Below the pieces are notes generated by a model. The model did not search any database, was not told the DNA's origin, and saw only the letters and a program-made list of their open reading frames with translations. The position numbers were made by a program, and so were the translations under genes. Positions 34,130-37,930 of a stretch of DNA of 64,000 bases are shown one piece after another. How positions within the stretch are numbered: position 1 is the first letter of the stretch; the number at the start of each line of letters is the position of its first letter. This DNA is from Beijerinckiaceae bacterium (GTDB lineage Bacteria > Pseudomonadota > Alphaproteobacteria > Rhizobiales > Beijerinckiaceae), in contig JAJPIC010000015.1 in assembly GCA_021324915.1 (NCBI GenBank), forward strand, positions 11,102 through 75,101, written 5' to 3'.

Positions 34130-34774
34130 ATGGGCGAACGCGTCAAAGTCCTGATGATCGAAGATCATCCGATCGTGCGCGACGGCTGCCGGCTGATCTT
34201 CAATCGCCGCCCCGACATTGCGATCGTCGAGGCGAGCACGGCAGCGGAAGGCTATGCCGCCAACCGGCAGTATCGACCGGACGTGATTGTCCTCGATCTC
34301 GGGCTGAAGGACGGCAACGGCTTCGACATGGTGCCGACGCTTCTCGCCGAAAACGAGGGCGCGCGGATCGTCATTTTCAGCATGAACGAGACGCCGCGCT
34401 TCGTGCGCCGCGCCCTCGACATGGGCGCGCGCGGCTATATTACCAAGAGCGACGATCCGAACACGATCCTTGCGGCGATCGACAAGGTTCGCTCGGGCGG
34501 CGTTTATCTCGGCCAGTCGGTCGCCCAAGCTCTGGCGCTCGCCAATCTCGAGCCAAAGAGCGATCCCTTGCGCCGCCTGAGCGGGCGGGAAAAACAAGTG
34601 ATCGCGCTGCTCGGCGAAGGCAAGAGCCTCGCCGAAATCGCCGCCGGACTCGACATCGGATATAAGACGGTCGCCAATATCGTCGCCGCGATCAAACAGA
34701 AGCTGGGGATTGCGACGAGCGTCGCGCTGATCAAGTTCGCCGTCGAAGCCCACGCCCGGGATCGGCATCTTTAA
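34130..34774 (+). CDS. Orphan NarL/LuxR-type response regulator, MxaB/MxcE-like
   Basis: REC domain (EDHPIV, LDL, FSM, GYITK) plus LuxR HTH (GKSLAEIA...YKTVAN); no cognate kinase adjacent. Confidence 0.88.
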   Translation: MGERVKVLMIEDHPIVRDGCRLIFNRRPDIAIVEASTAAEGYAANRQYRPDVIVLDLGLKDGNGFDMVPTLLAENEGARIVIFSMNETPRFVRRALDMGARGYITKSDDPNTILAAIDKVRSGGVYLGQSVAQALALANLEPKSDPLRRLSGREKQVIALLGEGKSLAEIAAGLDIGYKTVANIVAAIKQKLGIATSVALIKFAVEAHARDRHL

Positions 34775-34864
34775 GCTTCGCACGCTGCAGTGCGATCCGA
34801 GGCCGCCGCCGTTCTCTTTTCGAGTTTTCCACTAAATCCACAGGGTCTCGCGTTGCGGCCGAAG

Positions 34865-34947
34865 CTCAGCGATGAACTTTTCCATGCTGAGAATGAAGTT
34901 TTCTAAGAAATTCAAAGTGTTCCGAGACACGTGTTGCATGAATACAC
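34865..34947. promoter_or_regulatory. Candidate regulator sites upstream of the TonB receptor
   Basis: ATGAA(C/G)TTTTC direct repeat at 34872 and 34893 (21-bp period); CTCAGC/GCTGAG dyad; two adjacent GTGT..ACAC dyads (34917-34947). Confidence 0.5.
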
Positions 34948-35017
34948 TTGAACTGCGCATGCCCGTGGCCTTAGGCTTGAGCACGGTAAAGTTGCGTGTT
35001 GCGCTTCGGGGGGAGCC

Positions 35018-37357
35018 ATGCGGTTCAAAGTCGGGTACGCGCGATCGGCGTTGGTCGCGTCCGTGTCGCTATCGGTGTTTACGCTCCCCAGCTTTGCGCA
35101 AGAAGCACTGCCGACGGTGGAGGTCGTTGCAACCTCACCGGTCGGGACGCAATCCACCAGCACGCTTAACGTGCCCTCCGAAGTTCAAACGATCGACAGC
35201 AAAGAGATCGAGAATTTAAACCACGCAACGATCACCGAGGACCTCGCACGCCGCACGCCGGGCGTTGCCACGACAGACGAACTCGGCAGCCCGTTGAACC
35301 AATCGATCGAATTCCGCGGCCAGACCGCGACACCTGTGCCGGGCACGCCCGAAGGCCTCGCGGTCTATCAAAACGGCGTTCGCATCAATGAAGCCTATGG
35401 CGACGTCGTCAATTGGGCCTTGATCCCGCCGATCGCGATCCAGCAGACGCAGATCGTAACGGGCAATCCGGTTTTCGGTCTCAATGCGCTCGCCGGCGCC
35501 GTCGTGATGAACATGAAGAACGGCTTCACCTGGCAGGGCGCGGAGTTCGGAACCCAGTTCGGCACCGACTTCCGCCACGAAGCCTACGCCGAATATGGAA
35601 TGACCAAGGGCGATTGGGCCTATTACGCGGCGGTCGAAGGCCTTGGGGACAACGGCTTTCGCGACGGCGGCGCCTCAGGCCTCGGGCGCGCCTACGGCGA
35701 TATCGGCTACCGCGTCGAAGGCAACGAAGTCCACGTGAACGTCACCGCCGGGCGCGCTTCGTTCGGCACCTCCGGAACGGCGCCGATCGACTTGGTGCAA
35801 CAGGACCCCAGGGCCTATTTCAATCTTCCCGGCCTGTCGCAAGAATCGATGGGCATGATCACGCTCTCGGACCAGTCGAAGATCACGAGCACATTGCAAT
35901 TCAACGGCAACGTCTATTTCCGCGATTACGCCGCGTTCCGCGAGGACGGCAATATCAGCGATTTCTACCATTGCGCCGCGGCGTTCTTCTGCAACGGCGG
36001 GGCGCTCACCACCCTGCCCGATCCGACGACCGGCCTGCCGAACGGCCAGCCCGCCGGCGAAATCGACAGCAATTGGACGCATAGCTACAGCACCGGCACC
36101 ACGCTGCAGCTCACCGACACCGACAAGATCTTCGGACACAACAATAATCTGATCGCCGGCGTGAGCCTCGACCATGGTTGGACGCATTTCGGCGGTATGA
36201 GCACGATCGGCGATATGCCGCCGGATCGCATCGTCAGCAGCTACGGCATTGTCATCGACCAGCCCGCTTACGATATTTCGCCGGTCGCTCTCCTCTCGCA
36301 GAACAATTATCTCGGCGTCTATGTGCTCGATTCTTTCGACGTGACCGACAGATTGACGGTGAATGCGGGCGCGCGGTTCAACGACGCCCAGATCGACCTC
36401 AACGACATCAACGGCACAAGCCTCACAAGCAGCAATAATTTCAATCGCATCAATCCGACGGTCGGCGCTTCATTCAAGATCACGCCGGACGTCGCGGCTT
36501 ATGTCAATTATTCGGAGGCCAATCGCGCCCCGACCCCGCTCGAGCTCGGCTGCGCGAGCCCGACGCAGCCCTGCCAGATCGACAATTTCCTCGTTGCCGA
36601 TCCGCCGCTGAAACAAGTCGTCGCCCGCACCGTCGAGGGCGGATTCAAGGGCGACCACCATATCACCGGCGGCCCGATACCCGGCGAGCTTACCTGGAGC
36701 GTCAGTCTCTATCGAACCGAGAACCAGGACGACATCATGAATGTGCCGAGCACGATCACGGGCTTCGGCTATTTCGTCAACGCCGGAAATACTTTGCGCC
36801 AGGGCGTCGATCTCGGCGCGACCTACACGACCGCGAATTGGGACGTCTATGCCAATTATTCCTATATCCAGGCGACGTTCCTGACGCCCGTCCAACTCGC
36901 CTCGCCGAATAATCCGAACGCGAATTGCCTCGGGCCTGGCTCCGGCATCGAATGTGTGACGCCGGGCGACAATCTCCCGGGCATCCCGCGACACAAATTC
37001 AAGATCGGGTTCGATTACACGGTCTTGCCGAAATGGACCGTCGGCGCCGATCTCGTCTATGAATCGAGCCGTTATTATTTCGGCGACGAGATCAATTCCT
37101 TGCCGCAGGTCCCCGGCTTCGCCACGCTCAATCTGCGGACTGCCTATCAATTCAGCAAAACGGTCCAGATCTACGGCATGATCAACAACGCGCTCGATTA
37201 TCGCTATGCGACCTATGGCGCGCTCTACGACACCGGCTCGAGCCTCAACCAGGTCACCGGCGCGCCGGTACCCGGTCTGTTCAACTCGACGGACCCGCGC
37301 GCGATCACGCTTGCGCCGCCATTCGAAGCCTACATCGGACTGCGCGTGACGCTCTAA
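35018..37357 (+). CDS. TonB-dependent outer membrane receptor
   Basis: Signal peptide, TonB box LPTVEVVAT, plug ([15 protein letters not shown]...GLNALAGAV), beta-barrel ending YIGLRVTL. Confidence 0.93.
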   Translation: [779 protein letters not shown]

Positions 37358-37417
37358 TGGAGGTCCGGGCTCAGCCGAACCAAATGCGGTGCGATCTGTT
37401 AAGATCGGCATATTCAC

Positions 37418-37930
37418 ATGCCGATCTTCTTCACCAGCGATACGCATTTCGGCGACGCCAAGCGCATCCGCGTCGATCGCCGGCCCTTCGCCTCGATTGC
37501 CGAACATGACGCCGCACTGATTGCGCGCTGGAATGAGGTCGTCGGCGTCGAGGACGAGATCTATCATCTCGGCGACTTCACCGCTTTCAAAGATCCGGAC
37601 CGCGTCAGCGCTCTGTTGGCTGCGCTCAACGGACGCAAACACCTCGTCATCGGCAACAATGATCCGCCTACCACGACCGCCAACAAAGGCTGGATAAGCG
37701 TTGCCTATTACGAAGAACGGATGGTCGAAGACCGGCTGCTGATCCTCTGCCACTATCCGTTCCGCACCTGGCACGACATGGGCAAGGGTGCGATCGACCT
37801 GCACGGCCATTCGCACGGAAAGCTCAAAGAGAAGACGCGGCAATATGACGTCGGCGTCGATGTCTTCGATTATCGGCCGGTGACGCTGGCAGAGATTCTG
37901 CGAAGCAAACGCCGGAGAAAAATCGATTGA
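37418..37930 (+). CDS. Calcineurin-like metallophosphoesterase (COG4186-like)
   Basis: SDTHFG, LGDF, GNND, CHYP, HGHSHG motifs. Confidence 0.9.
   Translation: MPIFFTSDTHFGDAKRIRVDRRPFASIAEHDAALIARWNEVVGVEDEIYHLGDFTAFKDPDRVSALLAALNGRKHLVIGNNDPPTTTANKGWISVAYYEERMVEDRLLILCHYPFRTWHDMGKGAIDLHGHSHGKLKEKTRQYDVGVDVFDYRPVTLAEILRSKRRRKID

Follow-up and report, generated by a model that had tools for sequence, protein, structure and literature searches.

TonB-dependent receptors of the LutH type have already been reported in Beijerinckiaceae (PMC12482762, PMC8316094, PMC9291206), and lutH homologues in relatives of the organism considered here respond to lanthanides, as in RH AL1 (PMC8316094, PMC10848612, 10.64898/2026.03.03.709224) and Methylocella silvestris (PMC9291206). 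Similarly, a LutH-like receptor of M. trichosporium OB3b is cited in PMC12482762 as being required for the response to Ce. By what means methylotrophs perceive lanthanides and control their entry is an open question, as is the identity of the regulators of LutH-type receptor genes. A further candidate is found in a 64,000 nt stretch of a Beijerinckiaceae genome (C26:11102-75101 of G000; hereafter the window), where 4.1 kb of plus-strand genes, encoding a response regulator, a receptor and a phosphoesterase, keep the minus-strand genes rpsB and tsf apart from pyrH and frr. On sequence evidence, the receptor is probably a lanthanide receptor of the LutH family that has an operator of its own and a regulator derived from the MoxY family, the locus being an old neighbourhood in a XoxF-only genome. 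As LutH-like receptors are already known from this family, the receptor itself extends an established uptake system, and the added value of the locus lies in a testable regulator-operator prediction.

The two-component systems that serve as comparators are MxaY/MxaB (MoxY/MoxX), represented by the orphan MxaB of M. extorquens AM1, the MxaY-MxaB of Methylocella silvestris BL2 (Msil_0484/0485; PMC9291206) and the MxaY of Methylotuvimicrobium buryatense (PMC5018670). A working analogy, at the family level only, for the way in which lanthanides may be sensed is provided by PedS2/PedR2 of Pseudomonas putida KT2440, a sensor kinase and LuxR/NarL-type regulator implicated in the lanthanide response, although PedR2 controls pedE/pedH and no receptor gene, unlike the predicted target of the regulator described here (PMC6115532).

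The receptor gene (35018-37357, plus strand) encodes a 779 aa protein with PF07715 (Plug) and PF00593 (barrel) domains. It has the full architecture of a TonB-dependent receptor, consisting of a signal peptide ending in SFA directly before QE, a TonB box (PTVEVVAT), a plug and a 22-strand-type barrel, and its AlphaFold model adopts a plug-and-barrel fold (pLDDT 82, pTM 0.84). A preliminary description of the locus, made from the DNA letters alone, had called the receptor LutH-like and picked out a signature string within it. Both points have held: the protein belongs to the LutH-like family on the grounds of sequence homology, tree position and the genes that neighbour its relatives, among them lanM, xoxF and lutAB, and a signature block containing DPPLKQV is, like two Cys pairs, invariant or nearly so family-wide, receptors of canonical lut clusters included. 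The same description had placed three Cys pairs in loops. The six Cys do form three close pairs, all lying in turns or loops between barrel strands in the AlphaFold model, but only C319/C325 and C512/C519 are shared throughout the family (39/39 members compared), C637/C646 being found in the window protein and two others only.

Comparison with LutH was made through proxies, these being receptors defined by their position in lut clusters. Full-length identity of the window receptor to that of a canonical lutA-lutB-lutE-lutF-receptor-lanM cluster (L081) is 37%, and to that of a second such cluster (L079) 34%; the LutH homologue of RH AL1 likewise shares 37% identity with AM1 LutH (PMC8316094). 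A 42% identical homologue in Methylocystis heads a receptor-lanM-lutA-lutB-lutE-lutF cluster, in which the lanmodulin has four EF hands and the lut genes encode a binding protein (LutA-like), a YVTN propeller (LutB-like) and a LutE/F-like ABC system; genes for a NarL-type regulator and a kinase lie upstream. A paralogue in the congeneric genome G022 (59% identity) lies in a response regulator-receptor-lanM-xoxF5-xoxJ-lutA-lutB island, and one in Methyloferula (53%) adjoins xoxF5, xoxJ, xoxG, lutA and lutB. In a maximum-likelihood tree, all 39 receptor sequences constitute one family far from the outgroup, the BtuB-like receptor of the same genome as the window, and within both Methyloferula and Methylovirgula the copies at the tsf locus and in xoxF islands are in-paralogues. 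Among 81 sampled genomes of the GTDB family, 24 have a match to the receptor at E<=1e-30. The window receptor resembles described LutH-type systems in belonging to a xoxF-bearing methylotroph and in having close paralogues beside lanM, xoxF and lutAB. Unlike known LutH loci, it is situated between pyrH and tsf, has its own NarL-type regulator and a unique tandem predicted operator upstream, and is the only member of its family in a genome without Mxa.

The source genome, 3.07 Mb in 28 contigs and 98.6% complete, has Methylovirgula metagenome-assembled genomes as its nearest public relatives. One xoxF is complete; its product has the DYD motif of lanthanide-type enzymes, and xoxG and xoxJ come next. 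In addition, three xoxF5-like N-termini, nearly identical to one another, are located exactly at contig ends (C16:22975-23180, C24:1-206 and C13:29402-29563); repeated xoxF5 copies break the assembly, and the remainder of these genes is therefore missing from it. No match to PF02315 (MxaI) was found in the genome, nor were homologues of mxaG, I, S, A, C, K, L or D detected by tblastn in this 98.6% complete assembly, which breaks at the xoxF5 copies. To the extent that the assembly can show, the genome is therefore XoxF-only, without a calcium-type (Mxa) methanol dehydrogenase as an alternative, and it offers a methanol switch of the kind initially envisaged no mxa genes to act on. A LanM-like gene is found on C21 and lutE/F-like genes on C27, and C13 carries lutA/B-like genes adjacent to xoxG and xoxJ; the presence of xoxF and a lanM-like gene elsewhere in the genome, suggested as a check in the preliminary description, is thus established, and the scatter of these genes agrees with its picture of a detached uptake module. 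The LanM-like protein (C21:2745-3269, minus strand) has four EF hands, the loops of which (DTDKDG, DKEKDG, DADHDG and DADGDG) lack the position-2 Pro that marks M. extorquens lanmodulin.

TonB, ExbB and ExbD are encoded in the genome, which has only two Plug-domain proteins: the window receptor and a BtuB-like one (264 bits to TIGR01779). No FecCD-family permease was found in the genome by a search that was positive in 14/14 control genomes, which weakens the case for a classical ferric-siderophore role. Given the absence of a Mxa dehydrogenase, the BtuB-like nature of the other receptor and the lack of FecCD, the window receptor is therefore the sole candidate for a TonB-dependent lanthanide route. 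Four TonB_C-domain proteins are encoded, yet with just these two receptors and no FecCD permease the TonB-dependent uptake repertoire is unusually small.

The regulator (34130-34774, plus strand; 214 aa) is of the NarL/FixJ type. As in MxaB, which is of similar size (~210 aa), a receiver (PF00072, 74 bits) is joined to a GerE domain (PF00196, 38.5 bits); scores are below every NCBIfam equivalog cutoff. The receiver, read from the sequence, is intact (D12, D56, S84 and K106), and the regulator is a local orphan, as is MxaB in AM1, the kinase gene being absent at the window locus. A tree of 33 NarL-type regulators drawn from these loci resolved four well-supported clades. Clade A (100/99) consists of regulators at the ends of mxa clusters in G030 and G078 (Methylobacterium-like) and the Methylocella-like G050, an arrangement that PMC9291206 describes for MxaY/MxaB of M. 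silvestris; clade B of regulators adjoining receptor-lanM clusters; and clade C of those from kinase-regulator pairs adjoining xoxF5, including the only other full-length relative of the regulator in the genome (on C11). Clade D (100/100) comprises all regulators of pyrH/tsf loci, that of the window among them, as well as two copies that Methyloferula and G022 have beside mxa clusters. The strings DHPIV, FSM, GKSL.EIA and YKTVAN, on which an MxaB/MxcE affiliation had been based, are present but are generic NarL/FixJ features. Orthology to MxaB is ruled out by the tree, which separates clade D from the MxaB clade, A, with 36-38% identity between the window regulator and members of the latter, and by synteny. 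Furthermore, the genome has no mxa genes, and the predicted targets of the window regulator are the receptor gene and exbBD-tonB. The term 'MxaB-like' applies to the regulator only broadly, in that the kinases of its clade in relatives are of the MoxY/MxaY type. Positions flanking mxa clusters, either at the 3' end or directly upstream of mxaF, are held by regulators of three clades in different genomes; loci L074 (Methyloferula stellata AR4, C1:3054000-3070000) and L076 (G022:C5:28001-48000) bear on these.

Kinases paired with clade D regulators in relatives share with MxaY a LapD_MoxY_N periplasmic domain together with HAMP, HisKA_3 and HATPase domains, and the occurrence of clade members beside mxaF in two genomes is a further likeness to MxaY/MxaB. 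PF16448 scores 28.0 bits in the Methyloferula kinase (cutoff 25) and 18-19 bits in those of G022 and Methylovirgula sp. HY1. The kinase gene lies between pyrH and the regulator in G074, HY1, Methyloferula, G055 and Methylocella, and was lost once, in an 11-member subclade that holds the window. No orthologue or remnant of it was found in the genome, the best matches, at C14 and C11, being 26-33% identical. An orphan histidine kinase encoded at C14:94446-95810 has a weak LapD_MoxY_N match (24 bits), HisKA_3 and HATPase, with no adjoining regulator, and would be the obvious candidate for the phosphate donor of the window regulator. A strong single copy of the operator motif described below is located ~320 bp past the 3' end of this kinase gene (C14:96131).

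When the spacers between regulator and receptor were aligned for 14 loci from three genera, each with a clade D regulator, two copies, 21-22 bp apart, of the imperfect GGAA-N3-TTCC palindrome (A/G)(T/G)GAAnTTTTC(C/T) became apparent. In the window, these correspond to predicted operator site 1, ATGAACTTTTCCA (34872-34884, plus strand), and site 2, ATGAAGTTTTCTA (34893-34905, plus strand), the latter 21 bp downstream of the former and both ~110-145 bp ahead of the start codon of the receptor gene. A position weight matrix (PWM) trained without the window's own sites scores them at 19.1 and 17.2 bits, respectively, and they form the sole strong tandem pair in the 3.07-Mb genome. The strict pattern GRANTTTTCY-N10-13-GRANTTTTCY, which they also fit, occurs in 4/81 family genomes, once in each and always within ~180-320 bp upstream of a receptor behind a clade D regulator, with 0 matches to a reversed-pattern control. 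Upstream of 24 other family-receptor genes, 22 of them without an adjoining clade D regulator (the exceptions being G062's second copy and L005), no tandem pair was found, only scattered single weak matches. Co-occurrence only is what pairs the regulator with these sites, which are its putative operator.

A related arrangement precedes the genes for the energising complex. At C9:18072-18109, in inverted orientation, GGAATTTTTCG and TGGAAAAGTTCAT are separated by 11 nt, ~250 bp upstream of exbB (~18350), which is followed by exbD (19476-19913) and tonB (19910-20689); one 13-mer is identical to site 1, and its partner is weaker. Strong motif copies are similarly found upstream of exbB in G074, G022 and G050 (there in tandem), all of which carry a clade D regulator. 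Single-site PWM matches at >=17.5 bits number 16 in the genome, against 0 in a reversed-genome control. A genome-wide regulon based on single sites was considered and rejected, with many matches lying inside genes and the intergenic ones preceding the unrelated leuD, secY, an aldolase gene and genes for DUF2147 and DUF1223 proteins. Nothing convincing in the way of a tandem site was found near mxaF beside the clade D paralogues of Methyloferula and G022.

The age of the arrangement was addressed by using seven window proteins as probes on 25 public loci encoding receptor relatives, and by comparison across the family genomes. The division of rpsB-tsf from pyrH-frr by ~4 kb of opposite-strand genes, without an integrase or transposase, had been noted at the outset and agrees with the open reading frames (ORFs) and family scans; its interpretation as an inserted block does not survive the synteny comparison. 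The order of minus-strand pyrH, plus-strand regulator, receptor and phosphoesterase genes, and minus-strand tsf is shared by at least 12 Methylovirgula-like genomes, the receptors of which show 58-81% identity. G074 (of the same genus), G062 and Methyloferula stellata AR4 (G009) also have the module, as does Methylovirgula sp. HY1 with three additions, namely genes for a nucleoside transporter, an acetyltransferase and a Fic protein. The kinase-regulator pair adjoins pyrH, with neither receptor nor tsf, in Methylocella silvestris BL2 and in G050, a Methylocella-like genome; the BL2 orthologue of the regulator (66% identity) is encoded at 4.19 Mb, away from the mxa cluster. Loci L008 and L018 have the receptor at the tsf site and no regulator. 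The sharing of this gene order by several genera means that it is ancestral to Methylovirgula and Methyloferula, a multi-genus clade. Recent horizontal insertion is ruled out by this distribution, by the absence of any integrase or transposase gene within the 4.1-kb block and by its unremarkable composition (GC 0.56-0.64, against ~0.62 in the flanks). The block is an old, vertically inherited neighbourhood and not a mobile insert, which serves as a warning that splits of conserved operons should not be taken for recent insertions.

The split between tsf and pyrH is unusual, though not unique, and the junction is a long-standing variable site in Beijerinckiaceae. Across 29 non-self family loci, pyrH lies 46-344 bp after tsf in 15 and at a gap of 0.6-1.0 kb in 2, the phosphoesterase gene adjoins tsf in 4, and pyrH is absent within 1.5 kb in 8. 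The median gap in the 17 measured loci is 143 bp, leaving nothing to explain in the earlier suggestion that pyrH now needs its own promoter; pyrH of E. coli is transcribed separately from rpsB-tsf. In other genera, unrelated genes are found at the junction, such as a radical-SAM gene (G018) or MFS transporters (G080 and G044), and the two genes are >12 kb apart in G050, G042, G055 and G002, the distance in G055 being 2.2 Mb on the same replicon. In G062 (L071, C5:10000-24891), two tandem LutH-family receptors with 55% and 37% identity to the window protein are present at the tsf locus, the first of which is reported with an in-frame TGA.

The core of the block is a remnant of a MoxY-type two-component system that sits beside pyrH throughout the Methylocella/Methyloferula/Methylovirgula group, with a LutH-family receptor gene next in order in three genera, Methylovirgula and Methyloferula among them. 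In the lineage of the window, the kinase gene has been lost and the regulator left orphaned but intact. Taken as a lanthanide-uptake locus, the block would work as follows. Once phosphorylated, possibly by the C14 kinase, the regulator may bind the two GGAA-N3-TTCC-type sites 21 bp apart upstream of the receptor gene, and the related site at exbB-exbD-tonB, thereby setting, in whichever direction, the level of both the outer-membrane lanthanide gate and its energising complex. The LanM-like protein and XoxF dehydrogenases would then be supplied by the receptor, through which Ln3+, free or as a chelate, would reach the periplasm. This is a stripped-down case, with XoxF only, one candidate receptor, no siderophore-type ABC permease and a short predicted operator of unusual specificity beside a candidate regulator, which makes experiments on regulator, operator and receptor simple to design, for instance in the genetically tractable Methylocella silvestris or Methylovirgula isolates.

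A number of points weigh against a role in lanthanide uptake. The substrate of LutH-type receptors is known in no organism (10.64898/2026.03.03.709224), and at acidic pH Ln3+ may pass through porins without a TonB receptor, as discussed in PMC8316094. The identity to the canonical-cluster receptor is only 37%, and the window receptor is itself unlinked to lanM, lut or xox genes. It falls in no curated specificity class according to sequence models; its best partial NCBIfam matches are to siderophore and heme receptor subfamilies, all far under cutoffs, and its relatives are labelled 'iron complex outermembrane receptor' in their sources. Such labels and matches would suit import of an iron chelate or other metal complex, with the two-component system acting as a general metal or envelope regulator that has no tie to lanthanides. 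The siderophore receptor PiuA is the sole sequence match in the PDB (E=1.8e-16), siderophore receptors are returned by the fold search, and with two TonB receptors in the genome this is the only one that could serve siderophores; moreover, lutH of RH AL1 co-varies with iron-homeostasis genes (10.64898/2026.03.03.709224), and control of exbBD-tonB is typical of iron regulons. However, the genome has no FecCD-type permease, lanM, xoxF and lutAB recur in the ~16 contexts of homologues whereas siderophore genes never appear, and the window contains no match to the Irr ICE box within 3 mismatches. The Foldseek matches to solved TonB receptors (TM 0.65-0.72), among which there is no solved LutH, are to generic receptors only and, at 12-18% identity, reflect the fold alone. 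Overall, an iron-chelate transporter seems unlikely. The two leading structural matches are YncD and PqqU, the E. coli transporter of pyrroloquinoline quinone (PQQ), which, together with a 65-bit NCBIfam match to PqqU and the role proposed for PQQ in Ln mobilisation by RH AL1 (10.64898/2026.03.03.709224), might indicate import of PQQ or a PQQ-lanthanide complex, as opposed to lanthanide in free form or bound to a dedicated lanthanophore. PqqU outscores FhuA and FoxA by a negligible margin (E 2e-37 vs 3e-36, at 15-16% identity), the NCBIfam score is far under the 1200-bit cutoff, and the PQQ needed for XoxF can be expected to come from the organism's own synthesis; there is accordingly very little probability of a PQQ transporter.

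The regulatory part of the proposal likewise has evidence against it. Among the single-site matches only exbB fits, with no lanthanide regulon elsewhere in the genome; the receptor paralogues of G022 are without the site despite the presence of a clade D regulator in that genome; and the tandem site could belong to another regulator. The regulator and receptor might be neighbours by accident, the former controlling other genes (exbBD-tonB, xox, or mxa in relatives) and the latter being regulated independently. The kinase-regulator pair that adjoins pyrH without a receptor in Methylocella would fit such an arrangement, as would the receptors of L008 and L018 that have no regulator and the block interrupted by extra genes in HY1. 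Yet the tandem site is found only upstream of receptors adjoining a clade D regulator, in 14/14 loci, and at none of the 24 others; the regulator-receptor order has been maintained in three genera; and NarL-type regulators with MoxY-type kinases recur beside LutH-family receptors in the three other regulator clades. Chance adjacency is consequently judged improbable, and a LutH-family lanthanide receptor with its own regulator and operator is the favoured interpretation. A broader proposal, advanced here only tentatively and doubtful as it stands, is that clade D constitutes a two-component system dedicated to lanthanide uptake and separate from MxaY/MxaB, with a fixed place at pyrH across acidophilic Beijerinckiaceae, in which the tandem operator controls the sole LutH-type gate and ExbBD-TonB and which has been rewired in this lineage to an unlinked orphan MoxY-like kinase. 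If true, this would define for the first time, in alphaproteobacterial methylotrophs, a circuit of sensor, operator and receptor for acquiring lanthanides.

The third gene of the block encodes a calcineurin-like metallophosphoesterase (37418-37930, plus strand; 170 aa; PF12850/PF00149). It has no NCBIfam match and falls in no curated family below superfamily level, and its nearest PDB entry, 1xm7, is the hypothetical protein aq_1665. It is retained at tsf where the regulator and receptor are absent, being alone between pyrH and tsf in G022, and in HY1 other genes come between it and the receptor, on which grounds it is treated as an unrelated neighbour; it is probably independent of the receptor and not, as first described, part of the module.

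The minus-strand genes before the module run dxr, cdsA, uppS, frr and pyrH. The ribosome recycling factor gene frr (32396-32956, an ORF) is a flank retained in all related loci. The UMP kinase gene pyrH (33216-33939; TIGR02075, 288.6 bits, over cutoff) starts at the ATG at 33939, with GGAGG upstream read as its ribosome binding site, a longer ORF reaching 34091 being an over-extension. The 190 bp divergent intergenic region between pyrH and the regulator (33940-34129) must carry the promoters of both; no sigma-70 consensus was found in it, and sigma-70 and terminator scans around the module gave nothing usable. Beyond the module are tsf (EF-Ts; 38075-38974, minus strand; TIGR00116, 261.6 bits) and rpsB (39031-40116, minus strand), an ORF retained in related loci, the 5' end of which is probably over-extended. 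Right after rpsB, at 40232-42754, a katE-like catalase gene on the minus strand is accompanied by a divergent gene for a LysR/OxyR-like regulator, a pair kept at rpsB in most Methylovirgula-like loci.

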